Shown piece after piece: positions 27,197 to 46,010 of a stretch of DNA of 64,000 nt; the first letter of the stretch is position 1; every line of letters starts with the position of its first letter. Source of the stretch: Pseudomonadales bacterium (GTDB lineage Bacteria > Pseudomonadota > Gammaproteobacteria > Pseudomonadales > IMCC2047); assembly GCA_024234615.1 (NCBI GenBank), contig JACKNY010000002.1, positions 243,528 to 307,527 on the forward strand, given 5' to 3'. Below the pieces are notes generated by a model, which had not been told where the DNA came from, made no database searches, and was given only the letters and a program-made list of their open reading frames with translations. Both the position numbers and the translations under genes were made by a program.

Positions 27197-27300
27197 TCAC
27201 TCCCACTCTATTATCAATAAGCCTTTTTTGTCTTTAATATTCAATAGCTTATTTTCCTGCTAAATAGGAATACCATGAAAAATACCATGCTCAAAAATTT
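27197..27300. repeat. att junction 1 (outer boundary): guaA-end core plus arm repeats
   Basis: TCACTCCCACTC (reverse complement = E-W-E-stop), then AATACCATGAAAAATACCATG at 27269-27289; imperfect ~100-bp direct repeat of 31481-31585. Confidence 0.85.
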
Positions 27301-27437
27301 CTTGTAAATATATATCCTGAGCGGAAGAATGCGCCACTTTACAGCATCGATGCAGATATCTCTCAAATCCAGTTTCATCTGCCGGGGTCTCTAACCCCGC
27401 TTTCGCAGAAAACATCCTCAAGTAACAACGACTCCGG

Positions 27438-27839
27438 TCATTGCGCTAAAAGCTGGCTATCGAGAAATTTCCTTACAGCTGCCAAATCGACGACAAAACC
27501 ACCCAACATTTTTTTCATTGGCGCCGAACCATCGAACACCGGATTGTCATTCGGTGTTTGAAGCCACTGATCGCTGAGCGCTTCTTCGGGAAAGAGTATT
27601 TGTAGCGCTCTATAAATGCCCAGGATATAGCTGGCCCTTTCCAGAAAGTCTCGGGTCAATTTCGCTTTTTCCGGCTGATTTTTCCAATTGTAGAAGGTCT
27701 TCTCGTTGCTCAGACCCAGCAGAGTCATTTGCTCGTGCCCGCTAAGATGCCACAACGCAAAAATATTGAATATAGCTGGCAGCAAGGAACCTGGCTCGAT
27801 GGAGTAAGGTTGCAATAGCTTCTCGAATTCTGCTTTCAT
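27438..27839 (-). CDS. Xre/MbcA/ParS-type (DUF2384) antitoxin, orphan
   Basis: HTH N-term, ER.SYILGIYRALQILFP, W...PN.NP.F.G..P, DL..VR.FLD; no RES toxin follows. Confidence 0.85.
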   Translation of the reverse strand: MKAEFEKLLQPYSIEPGSLLPAIFNIFALWHLSGHEQMTLLGLSNEKTFYNWKNQPEKAKLTRDFLERASYILGIYRALQILFPEEALSDQWLQTPNDNPVFDGSAPMKKMLGGFVVDLAAVRKFLDSQLLAQ

Positions 27840-27850
27840 CTCTGCCCCTT

Positions 27851-27901
27851 AATACTGTAACAATACAGTATTTACAGACTCCCATACTGTACTATTACAG
27901 T
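27851..27901. promoter_or_regulatory. Two palindromic operators upstream of the DUF2384 gene
   Basis: AATACTGTA-ACAA-TACAGTATT (27851-27872) and ACTGTA-CTAT-TACAGT (27886-27901). Confidence 0.6.
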
Positions 27902-27933
27902 CAACTATGGGTTTGACAGCAAACCATTTGACT

Positions 27934-27983
27934 TTACGGATAAATCCCGTAATACTTTTATTGATTACGGAGATTTTCCGTAA
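27934..27983. promoter_or_regulatory. Two operators upstream of the DUF1778-GNAT operon
   Basis: TTACGG-N7-CCGTAA at 27934-27952 and 27965-27983. Confidence 0.7.
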
Positions 27984-28002
27984 ATAGTATTTGGAGATTA
28001 AC

Positions 28003-28290
28003 ATGTCTAAAGTTTTACGCTATGAAATGCAGTGGGATGAGGAAACTTATGCGCTGGCAGAGCGTGCTGCACGCGCGTCCGGTTTAACCAGCATCAAGGC
28101 CTATGTCACTCAGTTGGTGAAACAGCATGCGCCCGAGGCATTGGAAGCCTACAGCAGTATTCAACTGACCAATGCGCAATTCGATGCCTTTTGCGAGGCT
28201 TGTGACAACCCGCCAGCACCAACCGATAAACTCCGTAAGGTGGCAGAAGCACTTGACCAAGAGGGCTTCGTGCTGAATGCCAACCACTGA
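28003..28290 (+). CDS. DUF1778 (TacA/AtaR-like) RHH antitoxin
   Basis: LAERAARASG, I.LTNAQFDAFCEACDNPPAPTDKL; ATG 28003 after GGAG; overlaps the GNAT gene. Confidence 0.85.
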   Translation: MSKVLRYEMQWDEETYALAERAARASGLTSIKAYVTQLVKQHAPEALEAYSSIQLTNAQFDAFCEACDNPPAPTDKLRKVAEALDQEGFVLNANH

Positions 28291-28813
28291 GTTTTTGCCA
28301 CTGGATCCCAGTGCAATCAATGTTAAATCATTCGATTGCGGCAAGGATGCCATTAACACCTACCTGCGTCGCTACGCGGCAAAGAATATGGCATTGAACC
28401 TCAACCGGACCTTTGTTCTGCCCTATATACCCGAGGCCCTTGCCCCTAAAGAAGGATCAGGGAAATCTCATGTGGCTGCTTATTACACCTTGGCCCATCA
28501 GACCCTGGTTCGTGAAGAGTTGCCCGATCCATCCCGCCTGCCGCGATACCCTGTTCCCGTGATCCTGCTCGCTCAACTTGGAATCGACCGACGGTTCCAC
28601 CGGCAAGGCCTGGGGGCAAAAACACTGGTTCACGCACTTAGACATGCCTATCAGATCGCCAGCAACCCAAATGGCATACCTGCTCTGGGCATCGTTCTAG
28701 ACGTGCTTGATCAGGAAGCGTTGGCCTTTTACCGATCTTTCGACTTTTTCTTACCGTTAAGAGACAGCCCCATGAAGCTATTCGTGCCCATGGCATCATT
28801 GGAGACACTATAA
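28277..28813 (+). CDS. GNAT acetyltransferase toxin (TacT/AtaT-like)
   Basis: FDCG...INTYL, AAYYTL, PVILLAQLGIDRRFHRQGLG, FYRSFDF, LFVPM. Confidence 0.88.
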   Translation: MPTTEFLPLDPSAINVKSFDCGKDAINTYLRRYAAKNMALNLNRTFVLPYIPEALAPKEGSGKSHVAAYYTLAHQTLVREELPDPSRLPRYPVPVILLAQLGIDRRFHRQGLGAKTLVHALRHAYQIASNPNGIPALGIVLDVLDQEALAFYRSFDFFLPLRDSPMKLFVPMASLETL

Positions 28814-28848
28814 GCACCTATCGCTGCATCCGTCCATGGAACAACATC

Positions 28849-31278
28849 ATGTCTAACCACCATCCACCCAAAGAGAAGCTCCGCGGCAGCGGAAATAAGT
28901 TTGGTGATATCTCCACTATCGATGCAAGATTGACTGAGCTTGAGCAGGAAAAACAGCAGCTCATGGCTCTCAGGGAAAAGCTGCAAAGATCCAAGTCCCC
29001 TCCCCCCGCTTCGGACTCACTCTCACCGGAACAAAAAATTGCAATTTTCAGAATGCTGTTTCGCGGGCGCACCGATATTTTTGCCAATCGCTGGCAAAAC
29101 CAACAAGGACGAAGTGGCTATTCCGTAGCCTGTAACAACGAGTGGGTTCAGGGCATCTGCAAAAAACCGAGGATCAAATGTCTTGACTGCACTCACCACC
29201 AGTTTAGCGAGTTAAACGATCAGGTCATTTATCGCCACTTGGCTGGACAGCAGATTGTTGGCTTGTACCCTTTACTCCAAGATAACACCTGCTTCTTGCT
29301 GGCCGTCGATTTCGATAAAGGCAGCTGGCAAGACGAAGTAAAAGCGATGTCCAGAGCTTGTACCGAATATAGCGTGCCTCACGCTGTAGAGATTTCCCGC
29401 TCAGGAAATGGCGCGCATCTCTGGATATTTTTTGATGAAAAAATTTCCGCCAACGAAGCTCGCTTACTGGGGTTCAGCCTGCTGGGTAAAGCGATGGAGA
29501 TTTATCCAAACCTGTCTTTCGATTCCTATGACAGATTGTTTCCCAATCAGGATATTCTTCCTGAAGGTGGATTCGGCAATTTGATTGCTTTGCCGCTCCA
29601 ACGCGAAGCCAGGCAAGCAGGCAATAGCTCATTTGTCGATAAGGAATTGAATGTCATTGAAGATCAATGGCAGTACCTCGCAGAGATAAAGAGGCTTTCC
29701 AGATCTGAGCTAAATAAGCTTCTTTCGCAGATTTCTCCCAATGGAAACCTGATTTCAGAGCAGGATGTTAATGATACCCGGCCACCCTGGGAGATAACAG
29801 CCAAACCCAAGCCACTGATTCTGGAAAACCCACCTCAACAGATAACGATAACGCTCGCCAACCACATCTATTTCGAGATAAAGTCTCTGCCAGGCGCTCT
29901 TTCAGCAAGATTAAGACGTTTAGCGAGTTTTTCGAATCCGGTTTTCTTTAAAACACAGGCGCTTCGCTTTTCTACTCACGGCATTCCGAGGTTCATTTCT
30001 TGCGCACGCATTGAGCAAGGCTACTTGGCATTGCCACGCGGGTGTCTGGATGCGGCCCTCGCCTTATTGCAAGAGAACAATATTGACGTCCAAATCGATG
30101 ACAAGCGTGAGCCGGGAACAAAGCTTTCTTCGATAAAACCGCTGCTAACTTTAAGAAAAAACCAACAGGCCGCTGTTAAAGCAATGAGCAAACACGATAC
30201 AGGAGTACTGCATGCACCTACGGCATTTGGCAAAACCGTAACGGCTATCGGAATGATCGCCAAGCGTAATACAAACACGCTCATTCTTGTGCATAGCCGC
30301 CAGTTGCTTGATCAATGGCAGGAAAGACTGCGTTCGTTCTTACCAGAAGCAGAGATTGGCGTCATCCGAGGCGGTAAGAAGAAGCCGGCCGGAATCATTG
30401 ATATAGCGACATATCAAAGCCTGATTAACAAGAAAGACAATACCGTCTCTCCCATTGTTCAGGACTACGGGCATGTCATAGTTGATGAATGCCACCACGT
30501 ATCCGCCCCGCGCTTTGAAATGGTATTGAACGAAGTTCGAGCGAAGTACGTGCTCGGCCTTACTGCTACCCCGGAAAGACAGGACGGCCACCAGAAGATC
30601 ATCTTTATGGCTGCCGGCCCCATTCGGCACAAAGTTAAAAGCTCAACTGAAGGAAACTTCGAACAAGAAGTTCAAGTCCATCAATTCTATGATACGCCCC
30701 CACTACATCTTTCCCAGCCCGAGAAGCGGCCCAAAATTACAGATGCCTACCGGTGGATAATGGAAAACGAAGAGCGAACACAACGAATTGCTTCAGATGT
30801 GATCAATAGTGTTCGCGAAGGCAGGCACCCAATCGTCCTCACTGAAAGGCGCGAACATGCCGAGATGATTAACAACCTTCTCCAAGAAAACGGTATTGAT
30901 TCCATCATATTAAAAGGCGCAATGAAAGCCGCTGAACGCAAGCGAGTTGATGAGCATTTGCATTCGGCGCAGGTTGTGGTCGCCACCGGAAAGTATGTGG
31001 GAGAGGGTTTTGACTTGCCCAGGCTGGATACACTGTTTCTTGCCATGCCCATCGCCTGGAAAGGTTCGTTAGCGCAATACGCAGGAAGGATTCATCGGGA
31101 ATCAGACGGCAAAACGCAAGTGACGATTCACGACTACGTTGACTGCGGACTTCCCATGCTCCAGCGCATGTTCAATAAACGCGAAAAAAGCTACAAGTCG
31201 ATGGGCTATACCATCTTGTTCTCAGGTGAATCAGACAGCTCGAATGGCACTAAGCAACTTGATGCCATGCTGGTGTAG
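28849..31278 (+). CDS. Archaeo-eukaryotic primase-like (TOTE-type) domain fused to SF2 DEAD/DEAH helicase
   Basis: N-term LFRGRTD, Cys cluster (C..C..C..C), AVDFD, SRSGNGAHLW; C-term APTAFGKT, VDECHH, GLTATP, GEGFDLP, QYAGRIHR. Confidence 0.82.
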   Translation: MSNHHPPKEKLRGSGNKFGDISTIDARLTELEQEKQQLMALREKLQRSKSPPPASDSLSPEQKIAIFRMLFRGRTDIFANRWQNQQGRSGYSVACNNEWVQGICKKPRIKCLDCTHHQFSELNDQVIYRHLAGQQIVGLYPLLQDNTCFLLAVDFDKGSWQDEVKAMSRACTEYSVPHAVEISRSGNGAHLWIFFDEKISANEARLLGFSLLGKAMEIYPNLSFDSYDRLFPNQDILPEGGFGNLIALPLQREARQAGNSSFVDKELNVIEDQWQYLAEIKRLSRSELNKLLSQISPNGNLISEQDVNDTRPPWEITAKPKPLILENPPQQITITLANHIYFEIKSLPGALSARLRRLASFSNPVFFKTQALRFSTHGIPRFISCARIEQGYLALPRGCLDAALALLQENNIDVQIDDKREPGTKLSSIKPLLTLRKNQQAAVKAMSKHDTGVLHAPTAFGKTVTAIGMIAKRNTNTLILVHSRQLLDQWQERLRSFLPEAEIGVIRGGKKKPAGIIDIATYQSLINKKDNTVSPIVQDYGHVIVDECHHVSAPRFEMVLNEVRAKYVLGLTATPERQDGHQKIIFMAAGPIRHKVKSSTEGNFEQEVQVHQFYDTPPLHLSQPEKRPKITDAYRWIMENEERTQRIASDVINSVREGRHPIVLTERREHAEMINNLLQENGIDSIILKGAMKAAERKRVDEHLHSAQVVVATGKYVGEGFDLPRLDTLFLAMPIAWKGSLAQYAGRIHRESDGKTQVTIHDYVDCGLPMLQRMFNKREKSYKSMGYTILFSGESDSSNGTKQLDAMLV

Positions 31279-31325
31279 TCGCAGGTTTCCGGATTGCTCC
31301 AGAACGCGAGTTGTTCAAGCTCCCT

Positions 31326-31585
31326 GATACCATGCCAGCATCAATCTTCCTCTCATGGTATCGATGTAATGTGCCTTGTTACGCGCAAAAAAATACCATG
31401 AAAAATACCATTGATGATGCAGATTATATTATCAATTGGATTATTTTTATTGTTATTTTTCAATATGTTATGAATTCCCGTCACTCCCACTCGATTGTAA
31501 ATAAGCCTTTTTTATCTTTTATATTCGATGACTTATTTTCCTGACAATTGGTAATACCATGAAAAATACCATGCTCAGAAATTCC
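31326..31585. repeat. att junction 2 (between tandem elements)
   Basis: IR GATACCATG/CATGGTATC (31326-31362), AATACCAT pair 31392-31411, core TCACTCCCACTCGAT 31481-31495, AATACCAT pair 31553-31573. Confidence 0.85.
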
Positions 31586-31646
31586 TTCAAAATACTCAAA
31601 AAAATTGCCGATTGAAAGCTCTCACACTGCCCCTTGGTAATATCGC

Positions 31647-32449
31647 TTACCCAGCATTCAGCCGGTTCTGGAAATCAGCGACTTCCTCCAGAATCTCCTC
31701 AAATGTTGGCACATCACCATAGAACATTTCCTGCTGCATACTTTCATAATCGGCCTGCCATGCAGGGAGATCGGCGGCTGAGGGTACCAGCTGCAGTTCC
31801 TGCGGATTTAGCGTCGAATAGTCGACCCATGTATAGCGGAAGAACAGCTGACGATGCATGGCAATACGATGGAATAGTCCGAGATCCCGGACAGATTCGT
31901 CACCCACTCCGGCCTGAATCATCCTGTAGAGGTCATCGTAATGGCGGGCCATCGATCGTCGCTGCTTTTTTCTGGCTTCTGGTCGAAATGTCTCCTCATG
32001 CAGCAGCATTGCCTTTCCCAGGAATGTGCGCTCTGGCCGCACTGCCCTCACCTCTGAACCTGGCTCGGCCAATAATTCCGGGAAGGCTTCGTTGATGTAG
32101 GGCGTGATTTCGACGGATGCAACAGGTTCTGTATTTGACCGGGCGCCCATCTCAATCTTTACAGCACGACGCAGATAGGCGGCCTGCTCCGGGAAGGCCG
32201 TTGGATTCAACAACAGCAAGGTCTGTTCATCGGGATCGTCGGGATCAGGCTCAAGCGACCATTCGAGTGTGTCCGATAAATCTGATGAGATCGATTCGAT
32301 GAGTGTCGGTTGAATCTGGTCGCTGATACATTGCTGGCAGGCTTCTTTCAGCGCCTTGAGGCGCTTGGTCATCTGTTTCCTGCTGGGTGCTTGTTCCGGG
32401 GCATTTTCTCCACCAAAACCCAAGGCTTCCCTGTCGATGACGATATCGA
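31647..32449 (-). pseudogene. AbiEii/AbiGii nucleotidyltransferase toxin, 3' exon
   Basis: [42 protein letters not shown]; continues RFSED from the 5' exon once the intron is removed. Confidence 0.85.
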
Positions 32450-34328
32450 GGTGAGTCGGCCAGCGGAACTTCCCCGCCAGCCGCTCTCCGAACCGTACGT
32501 GACAGTCTCCCGTCATACGGCTCTCCTTGCTCCATCAGCCGGTAAGTAACCGAGAATATTCCAATGTGCGAACAGCTTGGTCTTCCGGCGGGCCATCTTG
32601 CCCAAGGCATGTATTGCCCGCCGCGGTTTGCGTCTGAACGTCTTGTACTTATTCGCCACCCATTTTCCCAGATGCCGGTTAATATGCTCAGCCAGGGAAA
32701 ATAAGGCAGATTTGTAGTACTTGCTGTAATACTGAATCCACCCCTGTGCGATTGGATTAAACATCCTCGATAGGTCTTCTATGCTTTTCTCGCAACACCA
32801 TTTCAATCTCCACGCCCTGACCGTTCTTTTCATCGCAGTCAGCGCATCCCGGCTGACTGCCGGGAGGAAATTGCAGAACAGCTTTCCGTATCGGTTCCTT
32901 GCCCCCCTCGGTCTGAACTCAAACCCGAGGAATTTGAAACTGATATTTGGATAGCGCCCCTTGCGATCCGCATCCTTGCAATAGACGATCTTCGTCTTGA
33001 TCGGATGAAGTTCTAAGCGGCATTCTGCCATTCTTGCTTCGAGATGTTGCCTCAACGCCTTGGCCTGAGCCTCACTCTTGAGATGAATAACAATATCATC
33101 AGCGTACCGCTCGAACAGTACGCGCGGATAAGTCCTTGTCATCCATTGATCAAATGCATAGTGCAGGTAAAGATTTGCCAACAGGGGACTGACAACCCCC
33201 CCTTGCGGCGTACCCTTGCTCCGCTCCTCCAAACGTCCATCTTCATGCTGAACTGGAGCGGTTAACCATCTTTGTATGTATAACCGTACCCAAGGGTTTT
33301 GGGTGTGCTTATGCACTGCCTTCATCAGCAGGTCGTGATCGATGTTATCGAAGAACCCCTTGATATCGACGTCCAGAACGAAGTCATTGCGCCAGCATCG
33401 CTGCCGTGCCCTGCCTACTGCCTGGTGTGCCGATTTGTTAGGGCGATAGCCATACGAGTCTTCGTGGAAATAAGGTTCTATTTCCGGCTCGAAGGCCATT
33501 TTCACAACCGTTTGCGCGATTCGATCCGATACCGTCGGCACTCCTAATGGCCGTACACCTCCATCCGCCTTGGGTATTTCCACCCGTTTGACGGCTGGCG
33601 GGAAATACGTCCCCGATGCCATGCGATTCCAGAGTTTATACAGATTGCGTGGCGCATTCCGATTGAACTCCTCGATCGTCTGGTCATCGATGCCAGCGGC
33701 TCCTCCCTTAGCGCAAACTCGTTTATACGCATCCCAGACCATTCGCTTGGTTATCTCAAACGGCCTTGTTGTTATACTGAGCTCATCCTATTCCTAGTTG
33801 GCAAAATTTAACAACGAAACAATTGAACCCCTTCGCTCCAGGCTCATTACAAGCCATTCACCACTACTACGGGTTCTTCCGCCCCTGAACTTCCCATCGA
33901 TATTTCGCCTCGTGGGGGCTCCACTTGTGCTTTTCTCTTTGCATGGAAGTCCAGGTTCCCACGTTCCATGGATGAGCCTGTATTCGGGTCACGCCACCTT
34001 TACACCGGACACCGCTTGAGCCGTCATTTATAGGTCACGCTCAAACTTTTCCAGGGCGAAGACAGTTCCCTGTTCTGATGTCATCTCTTTCTTTCGATGC
34101 TTCAACGGTGATTCGCTTACGCTCGTCTCCTCGAACACGTACTTAACATGGTCATGCCATGCCTTTTCCATAACGCTCACGACCATGACTCTTTATCACA
34201 GCCGCTTATGGTAGTTTGCAACCCAGCCTATCCCTTGGTTGCGAGGGGCCTTCCCTCATCTCATCCACAGTTACACACTTCGGTTGTGATTCTTTAGCTC
34301 ATCACTTCCTCCATGCTTCGTGGCACAC
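32450..34328 (-). mobile_element. Group II intron, 1879 nt, RmInt1-like (class D, IIB)
   Basis: 5' GTGTG at 34328; domain V GAGCCGTATGACGGGAGACTGTCACGTACGGTTC; domain VI with bulged A at -7, ending CTCACC; EBS1/EBS2 complementary to the flanking exon; splicing restores the host frame. Confidence 0.93.
32513..33742 (-). CDS. ltrA: Group II intron reverse transcriptase/maturase (no endonuclease domain)
   Basis: [63 protein letters not shown]. Confidence 0.95.
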
Positions 34329-34530
34329 TATCTTCGGAAAAGCGTTCGATGAGATTCCAGCACTTGGATAACGACGTACCACCCTTAAACGTCAGATGTT
34401 TGCCCCATTCGGGCAGATCGAATAATTTGCCCAGCGTCCAACAAACCCAGAAGTCCTTTTCGACGGCAATCTCGAACAGATTCAGTTGTGCGCCTGTCTC
34501 CGTACAGACGAGCCGGCGACGTTCTTCCGG
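34329..34530 (-). pseudogene. AbiEii toxin 5' exon, start codon lost
   Basis: Manual translation [29 protein letters not shown]...[20 protein letters not shown]; no in-frame start found upstream. Confidence 0.8.
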
Positions 34531-35003
34531 CCCAGGTGGCGCAGTGCCTGGATCACCAACCCACTGATCTTTCCCGCAGTGGCCATATTGCGGGGAGTCG
34601 TGTGCTTCAGGATGATCTGGCGCTTGCCAACCTGGACAGTCCGCGAGCGGCCATCCGTTAAATAAACAACCTTCATGGGGACTTGCGTGGAGAGCCCAAG
34701 CAAATTAGCTGCGTAGGCCCCGGAGGGTTGAAGCCGGGTGGCGTCGCGACCTGCAAGTGCGCTTGCGATATCATCCGTCGATGGTTGCAACGAACCCAAC
34801 TGGGGATCAATTTTCGGGTAATCGTAGAGTCCCCGGGCCAGCTGACGGATAAGGCCGCTGTCCCGATGCCGCATCAGTGCCAGATCGACAGCCCCGCGGG
34901 TACCAAGATCCGTAAAACTATCGGGCGTAAAGACCCAGCCCCGCTTGCGGCCCTGAATCCGGCGGAGGATCTTGCTGTCGGTACTGTCTGCGTGCCTGCC
35001 CAT
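34482..35003 (-). CDS. AbiEi-type antitoxin (DUF6088 family), C-terminally truncated
   Basis: [42 protein letters not shown]. Confidence 0.85.
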
Positions 35004-35005
35004 AT

Positions 35006-35040
35006 TTTTGAAAGAAAAGTGTATATCTTTTCTTTCAAAA
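35006..35040. promoter_or_regulatory. Perfect 14-bp inverted repeat operator upstream of abiEi
   Basis: TTTTGAAAGAAAAG-N7-CTTTTCTTTCAAAA abutting the ATG; AbiEi antitoxins autoregulate through promoter inverted repeats. Confidence 0.75.
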
Positions 35041-35309
35041 TAAAAGTGCTATTCAGGCCCTCTGAGTCTGTATGAGTGAGCGCGGGGTAAGGTCGGGCAG
35101 TGCCTGAATGGTTTCTGAACTTTTGCAGGCCGAAGGATAGGTCTTGATAGTGGTCAGATTACTGCTGTCACTCCAGACGCCGCACTCCGGTATCTTCGGC
35201 GCAAAACAAGCAAGGACGCGCATCCCCTTCGTGGTCTGGGAGCCGATCATGTCTTTAATGGCCGAAAGCAGGCTGAGGCCTTGCTCGACAGGTAATGCTC
35301 AGTCCGGCT

Positions 35310-35463
35310 GATACCATGCCAACATCAATCTACCCCTCATAGTATCACTGGTTTTTACATTACAGTGCGCAGGAAAACGCCGATTGTAAACAGGCCATTT
35401 TCCAGCATTATTTTCAATTGTTTATTTATTGGTGCAGGTGAGAATACCATGCAAAATACCATG
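35310..35463. repeat. att junction 3 (diverged)
   Basis: GATACCATGCCAACATCAATC...CATAGTATC (cf. 31326), CGATTGTAAA (35381-35390; cf. 31492), AATACCATGCAAAATACCATG (35443-35463). Confidence 0.7.
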
Positions 35464-35512
35464 TTCAGCATTTACTGCTAATCGATACGGTAATCACCAA
35501 TTCACACGTGCA

Positions 35513-35935
35513 TCAACCACTTTTGCGTCCAACCATGCGGCCGGCGAACTCCTGCCTCTCAAAGACCAGATGTTTGAAAGCGCCGAACACATGCAGAACC
35601 ACCGCAACCAGAACGGCCTTCGCGGCAACCACATGAACCACTTCAAGTGCCTCGTGCAGGGACTCCATTTTACCGGTCGGGCTCGGTATCGAAAACCAGG
35701 TGAAAACCTCGATGGCCCGATCACCGGTCCACACTGCCAGCGGGCCGGTGACGATAAGCACGCTGATACCCAGTAACAGGACGACGTGCACAAACTGCGT
35801 CAGACGTTGCATCGCCACGGGTTGCTTGAAGGCCGCAGGGCCGTCGCTGAACATCCTCCACAGCACGCGAAACGCAAGCGGTGCGAACACCAGCGCGCCG
35901 ATGGCTATATGCAGTTTCGGGAATTCCAGGGACAC
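35513..35935 (-). CDS. Cytochrome b561/b-type membrane protein, possibly N-truncated
   Basis: LHIAIG, R.LWR, H.VL, LH...H, LHV.GA.KH heme-ligand His pattern. Confidence 0.7.
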   Translation of the reverse strand: MSLEFPKLHIAIGALVFAPLAFRVLWRMFSDGPAAFKQPVAMQRLTQFVHVVLLLGISVLIVTGPLAVWTGDRAIEVFTWFSIPSPTGKMESLHEALEVVHVVAAKAVLVAVVLHVFGAFKHLVFERQEFAGRMVGRKSG

Positions 35936-36001
35936 CCTACATAATCAGGGACAATCAGGATGGCAGAAATATTGATGTATGGTATTCACATGGCTTTACA
36001 G

Positions 36002-37336
36002 TTATCGCATCTCGAAAAACTCGCGATGAAAGTTTGCCGCCGGTAGTCCGTTGGCCAGAAAATCCTCACGCAGGGCATCACCGAAAGCCGCGGGCCCGCA
36101 GAACCAGACACCCGTCGAACGCCATTCCGGTACTAATTTACGGATTCGCTCACCCGTCAGGCGGCTATCCTTTGGTGTAACGAACAGATGCAGTTTTACG
36201 TTAGCCGCTTCAGCATCGGCCGTAAGCTTGTCAATCGCCGTCTGGTCAAAATCCGTCGTCGCATGGAACAGATCGATCTCCTGCTCGCCCGGCGTGTGGG
36301 CCAGATGCTTCATTCGCGCAATAAACGGTGTAATGCCAATGCCACCCCCAATCCAGATCTGCCGTGATCGACCGTCATTGAAATCGAAACAACCGTAAGG
36401 GCCTTCCACGGAAACCGGCGTACCCACTTTTAGTCTGTCGCGCAACCGACTCGTCCAGTCACCCAACCCCTTGGTTATAAACGTCATCCTGTGCTCTTCC
36501 GGATTCCACGCAGAGGCAATGGTGTAAGGGTGGGCACCCTCGCGTTTGTTGGATATGACAAATGCGAACTGCCCCGGTACATGCCCCTGCCATCCGTTGC
36601 CCACATCGAGAGTGCCTTCTATGACGTTCAGTCCTGGATAGTAAGTCACTGACTCGATGACACCTTCCGCTTTGCGTCTGGCACCCACTTGGCCAGCCAG
36701 TACCAGCAAAGCCGACATGGTTCCCCCCAGCATCAGGATCGCCAATACCCAGCCGACAGGTTGCGACCAGTAGCTAAACTGAGTAAGAACAACGGTGTGA
36801 AACACCAGCGCCAGGTAAGCAATCGCAAGCCAGTTATGGGTTTTTCTAAACAGGTGATACGGAAATTTCTTTATCAGTGCAAGAACAATGAGGATCGCCA
36901 CGATATAGAACACCCATTCACCAACAGATTCGGCCAGACCGCGCTGGCTCCGCAGCAATTCTTCAGGTGCTGAGAGCATCTGCTCAATGACTGGTTTGCG
37001 CTCGGGTTTTGTCAGCCAGCCCCAGCCGACCATCCACTTGGTACCCTTCGCCCACCACCAGTGAACCGTTGCAACAACCAAGGCCGTGACGCCAAGCCAT
37101 TTGTGCAGACGGTACATCTTGTCTAGCCCGTTCAATGGACGCTCGATCAGTTTTGGCCGTAGCGCAAGCAGCAATGCCGCGCTCATGACACCGATGGCGA
37201 CCACCCCGGTGTACTGGACAAATACACCACGAAACGAAAAATAGTTGAATGGGTCTGGTATTAATGTGTCGGCGAACAGCCACAGCGCACTTAGTGCCAG
37301 CAACAGTCCCCAAAAACTGAGTTTGATCTTGCTCAT
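36002..37336 (-). CDS. Ferric reductase-like transmembrane protein with FAD/NAD-binding domain
   Basis: GLDKMYRLHKWLG, H.WL, HPYTIAS, EGPYG, WIGGGIGITPF, FCGP, EFFEMR. Confidence 0.88.
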   Translation of the reverse strand: MSKIKLSFWGLLLALSALWLFADTLIPDPFNYFSFRGVFVQYTGVVAIGVMSAALLLALRPKLIERPLNGLDKMYRLHKWLGVTALVVATVHWWWAKGTKWMVGWGWLTKPERKPVIEQMLSAPEELLRSQRGLAESVGEWVFYIVAILIVLALIKKFPYHLFRKTHNWLAIAYLALVFHTVVLTQFSYWSQPVGWVLAILMLGGTMSALLVLAGQVGARRKAEGVIESVTYYPGLNVIEGTLDVGNGWQGHVPGQFAFVISNKREGAHPYTIASAWNPEEHRMTFITKGLGDWTSRLRDRLKVGTPVSVEGPYGCFDFNDGRSRQIWIGGGIGITPFIARMKHLAHTPGEQEIDLFHATTDFDQTAIDKLTADAEAANVKLHLFVTPKDSRLTGERIRKLVPEWRSTGVWFCGPAAFGDALREDFLANGLPAANFHREFFEMR

Positions 37337-37350
37337 AGTGAAATATGATC

Positions 37351-37828
37351 CTATGCGTTTGCTATCCTCAGAATCGGCTTGATGGTTTTTCCGGTTTTTG
37401 AGTCTTCGAACGCCTGGTCGATGTCCTCAAAATCGTAAATACCCACTAACCTGTCGAAAGGCAACAGGCCTTTTTTATGATAATTCACCAGTTCGGGAAG
37501 TATCATCTGTGGCACGGTGTCGTCTTCAATAACGCCTATCAATGCCTTGCCTTCGGCCATAATTTCTTGCTGAATGTTTGAACGTCACTTCACCGGTAAA
37601 ACCAACAATGGCACATTGACCCAGTGGGCGCAGACCTTGAACAGCCTGCTTGACCACCGGCGCAACGCCCGTTGTATCGATTGCATAATGCCGAGCATGA
37701 CGAGTACCAGTGCCGCGACAGTGATTCAACCTGAAGATCAAACCGTAGCAATCCAGCGTGTCGCGCAACGACACATCGTTAGCGCTAGGGTTTAACGGAG
37801 GATTCATTGTGTTCGATTCAGAAGTCAT
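37351..37828 (-). pseudogene. Chimeric, frameshifted remnant of a Zn-dependent (aryl-)alcohol dehydrogenase
   Basis: YAIDTTGV..V...GLRPLGQCAIVG, then frameshift near 37578 into GKALIGVIE....P..I....KG.LPFDRL...IKPIL; N-terminal catalytic domain absent. Confidence 0.75.
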
Positions 37829-37861
37829 GGTGTTTCTCCTTGTCATCGCGCGCATTGGAAA

Positions 37862-39319
37862 CTAGCGAGCGACCGCAATCGCATCAGGCGCGCTGTCGGC
37901 CTCCTGCCAACCGCTCCCGAGCACTTTGTAGAGGGTCACAAGATTGGTCGACCGTGAAAGTTGGGTAGCGATCAGGTTTTTCTGGGCACTGTAGAGCGCG
38001 CGTTGCGCGTCGAGCACGTTGAGATAGCTGTCGATGCCGCCGCGGTAGCGTACCTCGGACAGTTGGTAGGTCACTGCGGTGGCATCCGTCAGCGAACGCT
38101 GCGCAGCGAGTTGATTGTCAATGTTGCTACGCAAAGCAAGCGCATCGGCCACCTCGCGGAAAGCGGTCTGGATTCTCTTCTCATACTGCGCCACCAGCAT
38201 GTCGCGCTCGACCTCGGCGACGCGCAGATGGGCGCGGTTGCTGCCAGCGTTGAAGATCGGCAGCGTCACCTGCGGCAGGAAGCTCCAGGTGCCGGAACCG
38301 GAGGCGAACAAGCCCGACAGACTGTCGCTGGCAGTGCCCGCGCTGGCGGTGAGCGTGATGCTCGGGAAAAACGCGGCTCGCGCCGCACCGATGTTGGCAT
38401 TGGCGGCGAGCAGTGCGTGCTCTGCCTGTTGCACATCGGGACGCTGCAACAACACCTCGCCGGGTAGTCCAACCGACAGCTCCGACATTACGTCGCGCAA
38501 TTGATCCGGCGCCGCCGGCAGCAGGTCGGCCGGGACCGGCGTACCGAGCAGCAACGCCAGTGCATTGCGGTCCTGTGCGACCAGGGCGGTGAAAGCCGCG
38601 ACGTCGACGCGCGCCGCATCGACGCTGGTCTGGGCCTGGCGGGCGTCCAGTTCGGAGGCCACGCCCACCTCGAAGCTGCGGCGTGTGAGCGCGTAGGATT
38701 CGCTCTGGCTTGCTAGGGTCTCCTGCGCGAGCCGCAGGCGTTCCGCGTCCGCGCTCCAGGTCAGGTAGGCGCTGGCGACTTCGGCAACCAGGCTGATACG
38801 CGTACTGCGCGTCGCCTGTTCGCTGGCGAGATACTGTTCCAGCGCCTGGTCCTTGAGACTGCGCAGCCGCCCGAACAGGTCGAGTTCCCAGGCGGAGAAA
38901 CCCAGATCGACGGCGTACTCGTGACTCGAACGCGTGCTGTCATTGCCCGACAGCGTGAACAACGCGCGCTGGGCACTGTACCCGGCACTGGCATCGACAG
39001 ACGGCAACAGGTCGGCACGCTGGATACGATACTGCGCCTGTACCTTTTCGACGTTCAGTGCTGCCACGCGCAGGTCGCGGTTATTTTCCAGCGCCAGTTC
39101 GATGAGTCGCTGCAGGGCAGCATCGTTGAAGTAAGCGCGCCATTCGAGATCGGCCGCAGCGCGTGCGTCCTGCTGCGCTTGCGGCGTGTCCGCCGCTTTG
39201 CTGGGCCAGCTGTCGGGCACCGGCGCCGGCGGGCGCTGGTAGTCCGGTGCCAGCGTGGCGCAACCGCCGAGCAACAGTGCGGCCAGTACCGTGGTGGTAG
39301 CTTTGCTAACTGTGTACAT
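37862..39319 (-). CDS. RND efflux outer-membrane lipoprotein (OprM/NodT family)
   Basis: LLLGG-C lipobox, LAPDY.RP, NRDLRVA.LN, RPDV..AE..L.AANANIGAARAAFFP. Confidence 0.93.
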   Translation of the reverse strand: MYTVSKATTTVLAALLLGGCATLAPDYQRPPAPVPDSWPSKAADTPQAQQDARAAADLEWRAYFNDAALQRLIELALENNRDLRVAALNVEKVQAQYRIQRADLLPSVDASAGYSAQRALFTLSGNDSTRSSHEYAVDLGFSAWELDLFGRLRSLKDQALEQYLASEQATRSTRISLVAEVASAYLTWSADAERLRLAQETLASQSESYALTRRSFEVGVASELDARQAQTSVDAARVDVAAFTALVAQDRNALALLLGTPVPADLLPAAPDQLRDVMSELSVGLPGEVLLQRPDVQQAEHALLAANANIGAARAAFFPSITLTASAGTASDSLSGLFASGSGTWSFLPQVTLPIFNAGSNRAHLRVAEVERDMLVAQYEKRIQTAFREVADALALRSNIDNQLAAQRSLTDATAVTYQLSEVRYRGGIDSYLNVLDAQRALYSAQKNLIATQLSRSTNLVTLYKVLGSGWQEADSAPDAIAVAR

Positions 39320-39322
39320 GAT

Positions 39323-42300
39323 TCACGCCTCTCCCGTGGCGGGCGCATCGGGCAGCGCCACGGTATCGGCTTGAGTGCGGATGAAACGCTGCCGGATCAT
39401 CACGAAGAACAGGGGCACGAAGAAAATACCCAGCAGCGTCGCCGCCAGCATGCCGCCCAGTACGCCGGTGCCGATCGCATTCTGGCTGCCCGAGCCGGCG
39501 CCGTTGCTGATCGCCAGCGGCAGCACGCCGAAACCGAACGCCAGCGAGGTCATAATGATCGGTCGCAGGCGCCGGCGCGCTGCTGCCATGGCTGCGTCGA
39601 CCAGTGCCATACCCTCTTCCTGCAGTGCCTTGGCGAATTCCACGATCAAAATGGCGTTCTTGGACGCCAGCCCGATGGTGGTCAACAGGCCGACCTGGAA
39701 GTAGATGTCGTTGGGCAGACCTCGCAGTGTGGTGGCCAAGACCGCGCCGAGCACGCCCAGCGGCACCACCAGCATCACCGAGAACGGTACCGACCAGCTT
39801 TCGTACAATGCCGCCAGCGCCAGGAATACCACCAGGATGGATAGCGCGTACAGCGCCGGGGCCTGACCGCCGGCCAGGCGTTCTTCAAAGGACAACCCTG
39901 TCCAGCTGAAACCAACCCCTGTGGGCAGTTTGGCGATCAGGCTCTCCATCGTTGCCATGGCTTCGCCGGAACTCACACCCGGCGCCGCCGCACCGTTGAT
40001 CTGCAATGCAGGCAGACCGTTGTAGCGCTCCAGGCGCGGTGAACCGTAGCTCCATTCGGCGTCGGCGAAGGCCGGGAACGGTACCATTTCACCGGCGCTG
40101 TTGCGCACCCACCAGTCATCGAGGTGTTCGGGCAGCATGCGGAACGGTGCGTCGGCCTGCAGATAGACCTTCTTCACCCGGCCCTCGTGTACGAAGTCAT
40201 CCACGTAGGCACTGCCCCAGGCGCTGGACAGACCGGCGTTGATGTCGGCAATCGACAGGCCAAGGGCGCCCGCCCTGGTATGATCCACGTTAACCTGCAA
40301 CTGCGGTGTATCGTTGAGGCCGTTGGGACGCACGCCGACCAGGCGCGCATCCTGCGCAGCCATACCCAGCAACTGGTTGCGCGCCTGCATCAGCGCGTCA
40401 TGGCCGACATTAGCCTGGTCCTGCAGGTACAGATCGAAACCGTTGGCGGTGCCCAGTTCCATCACCGCCGGCGGCGGGAAGGCGAACACCTGCGCATCGC
40501 GGATCTTGCTGAACGCCTGCATGGCGCGGCCGACCACGGCATTGAGACTCAGGTCGGGAGTCTGCCGCTCGCTCCAGTCTTTCAGGCGCACGAAGGCGAT
40601 CGCCATATTCTGGCCGCTGCCGGCAAAACTGAAGCCGGCCACCGCGACCATCTGCTCCACCGCGGGATCACTCAGAAAATGCGCTTCCACCTGCTCGATC
40701 ACTTCCAGTGCGCGCTCCTGGGTGGCGCCCGCCGGCAGCACGATCTGGTTGAACAGGATGCCCTGGTCCTCGTCCGGCAGGAAGGCCGTGGGTATGCGTA
40801 GGAACAACGCCGCCATGACAGCCACCAGCAGGCCATAAACAAACAGCGAACGGCGCCTGCGCATCAACATACCGCCGACCAGTGCCAGGTAGCCGCCACG
40901 GGCGCGCTCGAAACCGCGGTTAAAGGCGCCGAAGAAACCGCCGCGCGCGGCGTGTTTCTCGTCATCGATGGGCTTGAGCATGGTGGCGCAGAGCGCCGGT
41001 GTGAACACCAGCGCCACCAGCACCGACAACAGCATGGCCGAAACGATAGAGATGGAGAACTGGCGGTAGATCACGCCCGTGGAGCCGCCGAAAAACGCCA
41101 TCGGCACGAACACCGCCGACAGCACCAGCGCGATGCCGATCAGCGCGCCGGTGATCTGCCCCATGGACTTGCGCGTCGCCTCGCGCGGCGACAATCCGTC
41201 CTCACGCATCACGCGCTCGACGTTTTCCACCACCACGATGGCGTCGTCCACCAGCAGGCCGATGGCCAGCACCATGGCGAACATGGTCAGGGTGTTGATG
41301 GAAAAACCGAACGCCGCCAGCACGCCGAAGGTACCGAGCAGCACCACCGGCACCGCCAGCGTAGGGATTAGGGTGGCGCGCAGATTCTGCAGAAACAGGT
41401 ACATGACCAGGAACACCAGCACGATCGCCTCGCCCAGGGTAAAGACGACTTCACTGATAGAGATACGCACGAACGGCGTGGTGTCGTAGGGGTAGATCAC
41501 CTCCATGTCCGCCGGAAAGTACTGCGCCAGCTCGTCGAGCCTGGCGCGCACGGCGTTGGCCGTATCCAGCGCATTGGCGCCGGTGGCCAGGCGCACCGCC
41601 ATGGCGGCGGCCGGTTTGCCGTTGTGGCGCGCCAGCTTGCCGTAGGTTTCGTTGCCCAGCGTCACCCGCGCCACATCGCGCAGGTACACGCGCGCGCCGT
41701 CGGCACCGGTCCGCAACAGGATGTCTTCGAACTGCTCAGGCGTGTTCAGACGGCTCTGCACCGTGATGGTGGCATTGAGCTGCTGCCCGGGTACGGCCGG
41801 TGTCGCACCCAGCTGGCCCGCCGAGACCTGCGCGTTCTGCGCCTGGATCGCGGCTGTCACGTCATCCGGCGTCAGGCCGTACTGGTGCAGTTTGTCGGGA
41901 TTGAGCCAGATGCGCATCGCATACTGCGAACTGAATGCGGTCACTTCGCCGACACCGGGTACACGGCTGATGGGGTCCTGCACGCGGCTGGCCAGGTAGT
42001 CACCCAGGGCGCCGTCGTCGAAACTGCCGTTGGGGGACACCAGGCCGACCACCATCAAAAAGTTGCGTACCGACTTGGCCACGCGCATGCCCTGTGCCTG
42101 CACTTCGGCCGGCAACTGGGGTGTGGCCAGCTGCAGCTTGTTCTGCACCTGCACCTGCGCGGTGTCCGGGTCGGTGCCGTTCTCGAAGGTCAGTGTCACG
42201 GTACCCGCGCCGGTCGATTCACTGGTGGACGAGATATAACGCAGACCGTCGAGGCCGGACATCTGTTGCTCGATAACCTGGACCACCGTGTCCTGCACCG

Positions 42301-42466
42301 CCTGTGCCGAGGCGCCCGGGTAGCTCGCACTGATACTGATCTGCGGTGAAGCGATGGCGGGATACTGCGCGATGGGCAGTGCAAGGATGGACAGGGTACC
42401 CGCCAGCATGATGACGATGGCGATCACCCAGGCGAAGATGGGACGGTCGATAAAGAATCGGGCCAT
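39323..42466 (-). CDS. RND efflux inner-membrane transporter (AcrB/MexB family)
   Basis: [54 protein letters not shown]. Confidence 0.96.
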
Positions 42467-42485
42467 GGTCAGTGTCCTCGCAGGT

Positions 42486-43709
42486 TCAGTTGACGGCGCC
42501 GGCGCCGGGTTCGTCGTTGCTGCTGGCCGTGACCAGCACGGCCGTGGCCCTGTCGCCCGGGCGTACCTTTTGCAAACCGTCCACGATCACGCGTTCACCC
42601 GCGTTCAGACCATCGCGCACCAGCCACTGGCTGCCGGCGGCGCGCGCGACATCGACAGGCCGGACCTCGACCTGGTCGTTGTCATTCAGGATCATCACGC
42701 TGGCCTTGCCCGTGTGGTCGCGGCTGACCGCCTGCTGCGGCACCAGCACGGCGTGTTCCGTGACACCCTCCTGCACCCGCGCACGCACGAACATACCGGG
42801 CAGCAGTTGCTGTTCCGGGTTGGGGAACAGGGCGCGCAGGGTGACGGAGCCGGTGCTTTCGTCCACGGTCACCTCGGAGAATTCCAGCGTGCCCTTGTGT
42901 ACATAGGTACTGCCGTCTTCGAGTATCAGTTCCACCTGCGCCGACAGTTCATCCGGTCGCTGAACCTCGCCCTTGCCGAGGGCCCGCTTCAGGCGCAGCA
43001 GTTCGGCGCTGGACTGGGTGACGTCCACGTAGATGGGATCGAGCTGCCGAACCGCCGCCAGCGCGGTTGCCTGGTTCGCTATCACCAGCGCGCCCTGCGT
43101 GACCGTGGAACGCCCGATACGCCCGTCGATCGGCGCGGTGACGCGCGTGTAGCCGAGATTGATGCGTGCGGTTTCCAGGGCCGCCTTGTCCATCGCCACC
43201 GTGGCCTGCGCCTGTTTCAGCGCCGCGACGGCATCGTCATTGGCTTCCTGGCTCACCGCCTTGACCTTCACCAGTTCCGCGTAACGCTTTGCCTTGAGAC
43301 GGGCCGTGGTCAGCGCCGCCTCGTCGCGCGCCAGCGTCGCCGCGGCGCTGTCGTAGGCGGCCTGGTAAGTCGCCGGGTCGATCTGATAGAGCACCTGCCC
43401 CGCCTCGACATCGCCGCCCTCCCGGAACGGGCGCTCGAGAATGATGCCGGTGACCTGCGGACGCACCTCGGCAATGAGGTAAGGCGCGGTGCGGCCCGCC
43501 AGTTCCGAACTGACGGCCAGGGACTGCGGCGCGACCTCGTGGACACCCACCGTCGGTGCCGGTGCCGCCGCCTGCTGGCCAGTGCCAGCCGGTTCGGAGG
43601 AATTCGATACGCCCCAGGCAGACAGCAGCGACGCCAGCAGCAGGACACTCAGCATGCCGGCAATGCCCGGGTTTCGGAATATCTGAAAAAGTGTGGTGGT
43701 CTGTTTCAT
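42486..43709 (-). CDS. RND periplasmic adaptor (AcrA/MexA family)
   Basis: LAGRT....AEVRPQV.GII, LYQIDPA.Y, YT.V.API.GRIG, FPNP...LLPGMFV. Confidence 0.93.
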
Positions 43710-43724
43710 GCAATCCGGCCCATT

Positions 43725-43775
43725 TATCTTTCCAGGAAGATAACTATAGTGACATCTTATCTTTCTTGCAAGATA
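43725..43775. promoter_or_regulatory. Two MarR-type operators in the divergent promoter
   Basis: TATCTT-N6-AAGATA at 43725-43742 and 43758-43775. Confidence 0.7.
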
Positions 43776-43825
43776 TTTATTTTACGCGTACCATGAGTAA
43801 AAGTTACCAGGCGGGAGTTACACCG

Positions 43826-44341
43826 ATGGCAGACAACTACACCTCGGACCAGATCATTGGGTTCATAAAGAAAAACTGGCCGGACATGCACAGTCCCACC
43901 CATGAGTTTGCCGTCTACATGAACCGGGTTCACGACCTGGGTTTCGCCCGCGCGCAGGAGGCACTGGCAGGCTTCAACCTGACAGTCGGCGAATTCGATA
44001 TTCTCGCCACCCTGCGCCGCTCCGCCCCGCCTCACGTCCTGACCCCCACCGAACTGCAGCGCTCCCTGCTCATCACGTCGGGCGGACTGACCAAGCTGCT
44101 GTACCAGCTGGAAGCCGGCGGCCTGGTCAACCGCTCAGTGCAAGAACAGGACAAGCGCAGCAAGCTGGCTCACCTCACGCCGAAAGGGAAAAAAGTCGCG
44201 GAAAAAGCCATGAAGGCGATACAGGGCGTGACCAGTGAATGGCTCGGCGAGGCGCTGTCGCAGCGCGAGCTGGCGCAATTAAAAAATCTGCTGGGCAAGA
44301 CTGCCCAGGCTCTGGAAAAGAGCGATTCCGATGGTGCCTGA
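43826..44341 (+). CDS. MarR-family transcriptional regulator
   Basis: LT.GEFDILATLRR, LTPTEL...L.ITSGGLTK.L..LE..GLV.R....DKRS; RBS GGAG 8 nt upstream. Confidence 0.92.
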   Translation: MADNYTSDQIIGFIKKNWPDMHSPTHEFAVYMNRVHDLGFARAQEALAGFNLTVGEFDILATLRRSAPPHVLTPTELQRSLLITSGGLTKLLYQLEAGGLVNRSVQEQDKRSKLAHLTPKGKKVAEKAMKAIQGVTSEWLGEALSQRELAQLKNLLGKTAQALEKSDSDGA

Positions 44342-44432
44342 TTACCCGTTGCCTCTCAGGGTCGGCTCACCCATCGATCGCTTATCAAGAGCAGACACCT
44401 TCCGGCGCCTTTCTCCCGATTCAGTCGCAGCC

Positions 44433-46010
44433 CTACTCCCACTCGATCGTTGCCGGCGGCTTCGAAGAAATATCGTAGGCGACGCGGGAAATACCCTTCA
44501 CTTCATTAATAATCCTGCCGGAGACACGTTCTAACAATTCATAAGGCAAATGTGCCCAACGCGCTGTCATAAAGTCGATGGTTTCCACCGCTCGAATGGC
44601 AACAACGTATTCATATTGGCGCGCATCGCCCACCACGCCTACCGATTTCACCGGCATAAAAACGGTAAAAGCTTGGCTGGTTTTATGGTAATAGTCCGCT
44701 GCATACAGTTCTTCAATAAAGATTGCATCCGCTTCGCGTAAAATATCAGCGTATTCTTTTTTAACCTCGCCGAGAATACGCACGCCAAGACCGGGACCGG
44801 GGAACGGGTGACGGTAAACCATGTCGTAGGGCAGACCCAATTCCAGACCGACTTTACGTACTTCATCTTTAAACAATTCTCGTAGCGGTTCTACCAATTC
44901 CAGCTTCATGTCATCCGGCAAACCGCCAACATTATGGTGCGATTTGATCACATGCGCCTTGCCGGTTTTCGCGGCGGCGGATTCAATCACATCCGGGTAG
45001 ATAGTCCCCTGCGCCAACCAACGTACATCCTTGAGCGTTTCGGCTTCACGGTCAAATATCTCGATAAATGCGTTGCCGATGATTTTACGTTTTTTCTCTG
45101 GATCATCAACGCCTTTCAAGCGCGCCAAAAACTCATCTTCGGCATCGACGCGGATAACCCGTACGCCCATATTTTTAGCGAACATGTCCATAACCTGATC
45201 ACCTTCATGCTTGCGCAACAAACCGTTATCGACAAACACACAGGTCAGTTGTTCGCCAATTGCACGTTTCAACAGTGCCGCAACAACGGAGGAATCAACA
45301 CCACCCGACAAGCCTAACAGCACTTTATCCTTGCCTACCTGATCACGCACTTTGGTAATGGCATCCTCAATAATATGCGCGGGCGTCCACAGTCCTTCGC
45401 AACCGGCAATATTTTTAATGAAATGTTCCAGAATTCGCAGACCTTGCAGGGTGTGTGTAACTTCCGGATGGAATTGAACACCATAAAAATGTCTTGTCTC
45501 ATCATACATCCCCGCTATCGGCGCGGACTCCGTCGACGCTAACAGAGTAAAGCCCTGCGGCATCTGCGTTACTTTATCGCCATGACTCATCCAGACATCA
45601 AGTAGTGCTTTTCCGGACTCATCCAAGTGATCGGCAATACCCTCCAGTAATTGGCTTTGTCCCTCAACCGCAACCCGCGCATAACCGAACTCACGTTCAT
45701 CAGAAGCCTGCACTTCCCCGCCCAGTTGTGTCGCCATCGTTTGCATGCCGTAACAAATACCTAATACCGGCACCCCCATTTCAAAAACCATTTGCGGGGC
45801 CCGTGGCGTGAGCTCCTCGGTAACCGATTCGGGACCACCAGCCAAAATAATAGCTCGTGGGTTAAATGTCTTGATCGCATCGGCAGCCATGTCAAAAGCG
45901 TGGATTTCACTATAGACGCCAATTTCGCGTACACGCCGTGCAATCAACTGAGTATATTGAGAACCGAAGTCCAAAATAAGAATACGTTCGGCATGTATGT
46001 CTTGATGCAT
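44433..46010 (-). CDS. guaA: GMP synthase (glutamine-hydrolysing)
   Basis: [50 protein letters not shown]. Confidence 0.99.

Follow-up and report, generated by a model that had tools for sequence, protein, structure and literature searches.

The 3' end of guaA is the insertion site of GIsul2, which recombines at the crossover motif GAGTGGGA (PMC9376610). Its integrase (Int) acts through three attachment (att) sites with GAGTGGGA in common, and can excise and integrate not only GIsul2 but also the CR2-sul2 unit, an experimental precedent for mobilization in trans of a unit that encodes no integrase (PMC9376610). GIsul2 is found in Shigella, Enterobacter and Acinetobacter and on IncC plasmids (PMC9376610); together with the sul2 unit it is a major vehicle of sulfonamide resistance. 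Pseudomonadota integrative mobilizable elements (PIMEs) at guaA were described in 2026 (bioRxiv 10.64898/2026.01.12.698999) and are newly recognized as pervasive. Tandem accretion and cis-mobilizable elements (CIMEs) are likewise established, as in ICESt1/CIME of Streptococcus thermophilus (PMC5704250). We analyzed a stretch of 64,000 nucleotides (hereafter the window) from a Pseudomonadales bacterium (assembly GCA_024234615.1, contig JACKNY010000002.1), in which 17.3 kb of accessory DNA, made up of three blocks (E1, E2 and E3), lies between tadA and guaA.

The gene order of the window is purL, tadA, the accessory DNA, guaA and, as a further neighbor on the - strand, guaB (Table 1). E1 spans 27197-31480 (27197-31492 with its second core), E2 31481-35380 and E3 35381-44432; the sizes of about 4.3, 3.9 and 9 kb and the gene contents given in an earlier, sequence-only reading of this DNA proved correct on domain annotation of the open reading frames (ORFs). 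The most probable reading of 27197-44447 is that integrase-less elements have accumulated in tandem (an accretion array) at the 3' end of guaA, with GIsul2-family att sites as their boundaries. That these are integrase-less guaA-end elements with att arms had been proposed in the sequence-only reading, and it gains support from the homology of the arms to GIsul2 and from an integrase with an arm-binding domain in a congener. The proposal of three stacked units stands only in part: E1 is complete, whereas E2 and E3 are fused by deletion of the site at their junction and E3 is without a P' arm.

Table 1. Features of the purL-guaA region, in window coordinates.
Feature	Position	Strand	Remarks
purL	22658-26596	-	
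tadA	26651-27139	-
Native sequence (B' side) downstream of guaA, between tadA start and distal core	27140-27196		Resembles no arm
Distal core copy (attR of array)	27197-27208	+	Reverse complement of GAGTGGGAGTGA: EWE codons and TGA stop
P arm of E1	27209-27310	+	Double arm-type site AATACCATGAAAAATACCATG at 27269-27289; 85-89% identical to other P arms
Xre-like antitoxin (ParS/MbcA type), E1	27438-27839	-	PF20432, PF09722; no toxin partner
TacA antitoxin (27991-28290) and GNAT TacT-like toxin (28277-28813), E1	27991-28813	+	PF08681; PF13508 match weak
809-aa PrimPol (AEP-TOTE)/SF2 helicase fusion, E1	28849-31278	+	PF22548 E = 6e-99, ResIII, Helicase_C; PADLOC: PrimPol
P' arm of E1 (type B)	31324-31480	+	Inverted repeat GATACCATG-N19-CATGGTATC (31326-31362), double site 31392-31411, 69-nt AT-rich spacer
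Core at E1/E2 junction	31481-31492	+
P arm of E2	31493-31594	+	Double site 31553-31573; 85% identical to GIsul2 attR
AbiEii toxin gene, 3' part, E2	31647-32449	-	PF08843; intron-cut; aligned with uninterrupted copy of congener G002
Group II intron within AbiEii	32450-34328	-	Reverse transcriptase/maturase 32513-33742; RVT_1, GIIM
AbiEii 5' remnant and truncated DUF6088 (AbiEi-like) gene (34482-35003), E2	34329-35003	-	PF19570
Remnant P' arm of E2	35308-35380	+	Inverted repeat GATACCATG-N19-CATAGTATC alone left
P arm of E3	35381-35481	+	Double site AATACCATGCAAAATACCATG at 35443-35463; core shrunk to CGATTGTAAAC
Truncated cytochrome b561, ferric-reductase-like flavoprotein, alcohol-dehydrogenase fragment, E3	35513-37855	-
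RND efflux operon (outer-membrane factor, AcrB-type pump, membrane-fusion protein), E3	37862-43709	-	64-68% G+C vs ~50% in host
MarR-family regulator, E3	43826-44341	+	171 aa as annotated in public contigs
Proximal core (attL of array)	44433-44447	+	Overlaps guaA TAG stop and final codons
guaA (GMP synthase), target gene	44433-46010	-

Every core copy is the reverse complement of the final codons of guaA (E-W-E-stop). A pattern search of the window placed ACTCCCACTC at 27199, 31483 and 44435 and the 12-mer TCACTCCCACTC at 27197 and 31481; the copy within guaA itself has CTA (TAG stop) where the other two have TCA (TGA stop). What had been described as imperfect direct repeats of about 100 bp is a 115-nt direct repeat (27196-27310 vs 31480-31594, 85% identical), with a weaker third copy at 35381-35481. 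The paired site AATACCATGMAAAATACCAT lies at 27269, 31392, 31553 and 35443, as claimed, and a repeat search confirmed all the repeat positions proposed for the guaA end; the period of the paired site had been given as 11 bp and is actually 12 bp (site starts 27269 and 27281). The 9-mer AATACCATG occurs 7 times where 0.47 occurrences are expected, a number reached in 0 of 100 shuffles. Across the 3.45-Mb genome the 20-mer double site is confined to its four positions in the array, and the reversed control pattern has 0 matches. A module thought to be shared by two of the units, GATACCATG-N19-CATRGTATC, was recovered at 31326/31354 and 35310/35338, inside a 70-nt repeat (31324 and 35308) that is 73% identical between its copies. 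A small ORF (MKNTML...) that starts within the double site was considered as well and rejected, its length varying from 10 to 18 codons.

These parts define a canonical cassette, in the order core, about 60 nt, double site (the P arm), cargo, inverted pair of arm-type sites, double site, 69 nt and core (the P' arm). The P arm of E1 is laid out as in the attR of GIsul2 and agrees with the consensus of 78 P arms, and its P' arm, which begins 45 nt past the stop codon of the helicase gene, agrees with the consensus of 31 type-B P' arms. With both cores and both arms, E1 is by its sequence a complete cassette and would still be a complete substrate for recombination. At the E2/E3 junction, a deletion of about 100 bp has taken out the double site and spacer together with most of the core, and the 91 nt after the MarR gene hold no arm-type site, leaving E3 without a P' arm.

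Comparison with GIsul2 identifies the family to which the sites belong. The segment from core through P arm at 31466-31594 matches sequence in 1636 of 5426 complete E. coli genomes (blastn, 129 nt, 85%), and the matching sequence is the sul2-side end (attR) of GIsul2 in plasmid NC_022371. Read in the orientation of the window, this attR consists of the core, 60 nt and AATACCATGAAAAATACCATGCTCAG, colinear with both 27197-27295 and 31481-31579. At the other end, next to the int start codon, the attL of GIsul2 contains GATACCATG, N59, AATACCATG-N19-CATGGTATC and a degenerate double site, a layout which on side-by-side reading is that of the module and double site at 31326-31411. This homology identifies the window repeats as att arms belonging to the GIsul2 family, whose tyrosine integrases are P4-like and specific for guaA. 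As in that family, insertion is at the guaA 3' end with direct repeats that hold GAGTGGGA; the likeness extends to the core GAGTGGGA itself, to an attR about 85% identical, AATACCATGAAAAATACCATG included, and to the inverted-repeat layout of attL.

The window differs from GIsul2 in what it encodes. It lacks int, alpA, repA/repC, trbJKL, resG, ISCR2 and sul2, and the cassettes carry toxin-antitoxin (TA), defense and efflux genes instead. A tblastn search of the window with GIsul2 Int, AlpA, RepA, RepC, TrbJ, TrbL and ResG gave a best E of 0.4 (E > 0.5 for Int), and no GIsul2-type tyrosine integrase is encoded there. The absence of a tyrosine recombinase from the window, noted in the sequence-only reading, holds in a search with PF00589, which returned 10 genes genome-wide and 0 within C2:243528-307527. 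Nor is a cognate integrase present in the whole genome, where the best homologue of the integrase is 33% identical and located elsewhere. To CR2-sul2 the cassettes are alike as integrase-less segments between att cores, the CR2-sul2 segment being moved in trans by Int; however, CR2-sul2 has the core and part of one arm, whereas the window cassettes have a full type-B P' arm.

PIMEs use the same attB beside guaA, carry large accessory regions rich in immune systems and occur in Gamma- and Betaproteobacteria, but helper conjugative plasmids induce them and their defining genes are int, alpA, a replicase (repA/repC) and trbJ/trbL, none of which was detected in the window by tblastn with the GIsul2 proteins or by Pfam annotation of all ORFs. 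With CIMEs the elements share attL and attR, the lack of integration and transfer genes and tandem stacking at one target by site-specific recombination. This description fits E1 on its own and fits E2 and E3 only as the fused block. CIMEs can also move in cis with an incoming integrase-bearing element. CIMEs, however, are described as decayed integrative and conjugative elements or integrative mobilizable elements, while here a standardized design with conserved arm spacing recurs in many lineages with no integrase remnants. Integron cassettes are similar in being small, promoter-poor units of one or a few genes with their own recombination site, stacked at a single docking site and reliant on an integrase encoded outside the cassette. 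In contrast to those cassettes, the elements have no attC hairpin, IntI or attI/Pc platform, their sites are of the lambda/P4 type with arm sites, and docking is at the end of an essential gene. The PF00589 search found no integron integrase at the locus, and the sites are arm-type repeats plus the guaA core rather than those of an integron cassette. The principles of tandem accretion and trans-mobilization are known; the literature searched yielded no description of the form seen here, in which standardized cassettes without an integrase but with a complete P' arm of their own distinct type recur as stacked arrays in many lineages.

Evidence that such cassettes exist independently comes from other genomes. 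A scan with the 20-mer, restricted to one genome per species, gave at least 120 stretches, in Gamma- and Betaproteobacteria plus a few others. Among the loci listed, about 20 complete cassettes of 0.9-7.7 kb were delimited, every one of which has its inverted repeat 157-159 nt from the core. The P' arm consensus (31 loci) is conserved from the inverted repeat up to the core and not past it, and the type-B arm is set apart by its double site-to-core distance of 89 nt, compared with about 150 nt in integrase-bearing elements (GIsul2 and congener G002). Cargo is varied and includes Fic, HipA, AAA/DUF4143, DUF6880, a chromate transporter and unknowns. In locus L060, a cassette with the archaeo-eukaryotic primase (AEP)-helicase (79% aa identity) lies directly beside guaA, between a P arm and a P' arm, and further copies of this gene, 75-88% identical, occupy att-bounded cassettes in L037, L080 and L100. 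Directly beside guaA in L051 is an AbiE cassette with DUF6088 at 94% identity. A genome search for the site, with a catalogue of cargo and integrases, had been put forward in the sequence-only reading; the present scan shows varied cargo and, in most arm-bearing genomes, no integrase.

A candidate for the cognate enzyme is found in G002, another species of the same genus. Directly downstream of guaA, G002 encodes a 405-aa integrase with Arm-DNA-bind_3, Phage_int_M and Phage_integrase domains that is 82.5% identical to GIsul2 Int, and four ATACCATG-type sites lie between the integrase start codon and guaA. The G002 array (L026/L027/L158-L162/L032; C2:364118-498575) comprises five units over 134 kb. 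Counted from tadA toward guaA, the first is a different element of 4 kb; next come E2, here free of the intron, and E3, followed by elements of 25.8 kb and 93 kb, with a core ahead of each unit but E3. The 93-kb element bears int and a convergently oriented alpA, and tblastn found no GIsul2-type rep or trb genes in the five-element array. G002 shares the deleted E2/E3 junction of the window (L026 8263/8396); therefore, E2 and E3 have moved as one block since the deletion. To the right of E3, G002 has a core followed by a normal P arm, and if this core recombined with the guaA core, two elements would drop out and the resulting E3/guaA junction would be exactly the one that the window has.

Between the two genomes, E2-E3 is 97-99% identical at the nucleotide level over 34517-38015 and 43016-44450, compared with 78% for guaA and 73% for tadA, and the tract of high identity stops at the cores (31473 and 44450). 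This pattern of identity indicates recent exchange between the two species. Within the block, the resistance-nodulation-division (RND) efflux operon is a mosaic, 75-93% identical to G002 within 38016-43015 with E3 flanks at 97-99%, which suggests allele replacement through homologous recombination within a recently shared block.

Taken together, these comparisons suggest that the elements most likely depend on an enzyme supplied by related elements that are absent from this genome. An integrase with an N-terminal arm-binding domain would arrive on a GIsul2/PIME-like island, a large island or a plasmid, bind (A/G)ATACCATG sites on both arms and exchange strands within GAGTGGGA. For a circular cassette, the guaA end and every core already in the array would be possible points of entry, and cassettes could be excised singly or with their neighbors. 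Transfer between cells would have cassettes riding in a composite with an integrase-bearing transferable element, by cis-mobilization (PMC5704250). The fused E2-E3 block would be movable only inside a larger composite of the kind seen in G002, where an int-bearing element separates E3 from guaA. In the genome studied here, which holds no cognate integrase, the array would be frozen. The PrimPol-helicase might replicate the E1 circle or serve in defense.

Several observations weigh against this reading of the array as a set of elements that move. All public contigs with the exact AEP-helicase (13/13) and all with the exact ferric reductase (23/23) show the order guaA-E3-E2-E1-tadA, and contigs with the exact E1 and E3 proteins give no sign of current mobility in this species; this constant order fits an array frozen for want of an integrase. 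Excision and integration of the units are proposed from sequence, and assembled metagenome contigs cannot reveal rare circles. The role of ATACCATG as the arm-binding site of the integrase is likewise a prediction from position and conservation, and the conservation of the double site across the collected loci is circular, as the double site was the search pattern. Homologues of the G002 integrase (P0001) with at least 42% identity occur in at most 14 of 50 arm-bearing genomes (at least 56% in 13), but many arm-bearing genomes are incomplete metagenome-assembled genomes, so that integrase absence is overestimated to some extent. Six of the hits agree in both span and identity (83%), so that GIsul2 itself is their probable source. 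Integrases at guaA are not all cognate, as shown by genome G034, whose guaA-adjacent integrase (P0002) was rejected as a candidate because its arm has no ATACCATG site. Finally, neither genome shows a P' arm for E3, and this element may therefore not have started out as a canonical cassette at all.

Of the competing explanations, the one with the most in its favor is decay: a larger GIsul2/PIME-like island, or more than one, would have lost its int, alpA, rep and trb genes in place, and the relics of these deletions would be classical CIMEs that never led an independent existence as cassettes. Decay is the textbook route of CIME formation (PMC5704250), and the array shows signs of it: about 100 bp, the core among them, are gone from the E2/E3 junction; an intron as well as a 155-bp deletion disrupt AbiE; only fragments of the cytochrome b561 and alcohol-dehydrogenase genes survive; and a P' arm is missing from E3. 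However, no remnant of int, alpA, repA, repC, trbJ, trbL or resG is detectable in the window (tblastn, all E > 0.4), and the P' arm of E1 matches the conserved type B, found at 31 loci with constant spacing and with a double site-to-core distance of 89 nt as opposed to about 150 nt in integrase-bearing elements. The absence of int, rep and trb remnants and the conserved type-B arm argue against a recent origin by decay, while an old one is harder to dismiss. The sequence-only reading itself had named relics of a single island, with no independent occurrence, as the outcome that would count against it; instead, the same cargo occurs as separate cassettes elsewhere, with E1-like and E2-like cassettes beside guaA in unrelated genomes, and E2-E3 appears to have been exchanged between species. 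We consider an origin as relics unlikely.

A different possibility is that homologous recombination between the 100-160-bp arms, or between guaA and tadA flanks (e.g., after transformation), spread the repeats with no site-specific integrase. Exchange mediated by flanks is conceivable for E2-E3, which the congener holds between the same flanking genes, and the efflux operon, mosaic at 75-99% identity along its length, does point to homologous recombination within the block. Yet the tract of high identity ends at the cores (31473/44450) and not in guaA (78%) or tadA (73%), arms that are 85% identical over 115 nt are a poor RecA substrate, and junctions are precise at the 8-10-nt core in many genomes, all of which makes this account very improbable. 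Less credible still is a role of the repeats in regulation or termination, or their membership in a non-autonomous family similar to miniature inverted-repeat transposable elements or repetitive extragenic palindromes, with no part in site-specific recombination. They are indeed short, AT-rich and intergenic, and the small ORF begins in the double site, but they occur only at guaA-linked loci, in a single orientation and each with a copy of the last guaA codons, and their homology to the experimentally defined ends of GIsul2 (PMC9376610) effectively refutes this idea. A tandem array of integrase-less elements bounded by GIsul2-family sites thus accounts best for the locus.

A broader interpretation, which we advance tentatively and rate as a little short of probable, is that the guaA end and the GIsul2-family integrases form a widespread, integron-like platform for gene capture. 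A standardized pool of integrase-less cassettes in Gamma- and Betaproteobacteria, each with a full lambda-type attP (P arm, core and fixed-spacing type-B P' arm), would be stacked, reordered and exported when a rare integrase-bearing island or plasmid passes; E1 would be a canonical member of this pool, and its PrimPol-helicase could replicate the circle. If the same integrases do serve a pool of cassettes for defense, toxin-antitoxin, efflux and metal-resistance functions, the guaA end would be a general site of accessory-gene exchange. Any incoming GIsul2-type element could then rearrange the genes at this site; in wastewater, where this organism lives, these would include elements carried by broad-host-range plasmids. 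The analysis also yields a concrete and testable map of arm-type sites for this integrase family, for which the published work consulted treats the 19-bp core sites only.

Contigs from four activated-sludge/wastewater runs were compared with the region in search of empty sites or circles; these contigs break at the repeats. Exact-protein look-ups gave the same species only, with one variant carrying an IS21 insertion. In the activated-sludge run X6, read depth in the bin that holds the P arm is 634, compared with 14-23 elsewhere in the region, an excess of about 30-fold, and multiple different sequences follow the P arm in activated-sludge contigs. The excess depth and the varied continuations point to an abundance of such P arms in the same habitat. 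A metagenome back-joint from 35160 to 27199 was rejected as evidence of a circle, as it has only 39 nt on one side and derives from another organism or a repeat.

In E1, the TacA/GNAT-toxin pair has a counterpart in G034 with 80-88% aa identity. No RES/MbcT-type toxin gene lies downstream of the Xre/ParS antitoxin, from which the gap to the P arm is about 130 nt, and the arrangement of this orphan antitoxin with TacAT recurs in G034. In E2, a group II intron splits the AbiEii gene; its Rfam matches are RF00029 at 32450-32525 and RF01999 at 34141-34257. This 1879-bp intron is missing from the G002 copy and from one metagenome contig, which fixes its exact limits, and in public contig L163 an IS21-family element (IstA/IstB) adjoins the intron reverse transcriptase gene. 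Relative to G002, a 155-bp deletion at the AbiEii/DUF6088 border (34517-34529) has removed the AbiEii start and the last ~45 DUF6088 codons; as it hits both genes, AbiE is a pseudo-operon even if the intron splices. Retention of the units by TA addiction, as earlier suggested, is thus applicable to E1 alone, through TacAT, since AbiE is disrupted in E2 and E3 has no TA pair.

Congener G001 (L031 3259-9508) has 6.2 kb between tadA and guaA, with enoyl-CoA hydratases, short-chain dehydrogenases/reductases and an acyl-CoA dehydrogenase, that is, metabolic genes of fatty-acid type. This insert was not counted as a cassette, as it has a P' arm remnant beside guaA and neither a distal core nor a P arm.

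Two further features of the arms were apparent. In many P arms, that of GIsul2 included, conservation runs about 100 nt past the double site (GCTCAGAAAATCCTTCAAAATGCTCGAAAAAATTGC.GATTGAAC...), as seen at 27289-27330 and 31573-31650 in the window and at loci such as L043, L044, L053, L064 and L075; this could reflect additional protein-binding sites or a promoter. Next to the core on its left, a second type of flank, ...TGCCAGACATTGCC.GCCAGTGCCGGTCACTCCCACTC, which includes a TGCCAG direct repeat, is present at L043:1312, L047, L055, L061, L064, L071:3999, L075 and L130 and in G034 at L029. This flank resembles the core-proximal part of the integrase-bearing arms of G002 and GIsul2 and may represent a core-type binding region or a second class of arm.

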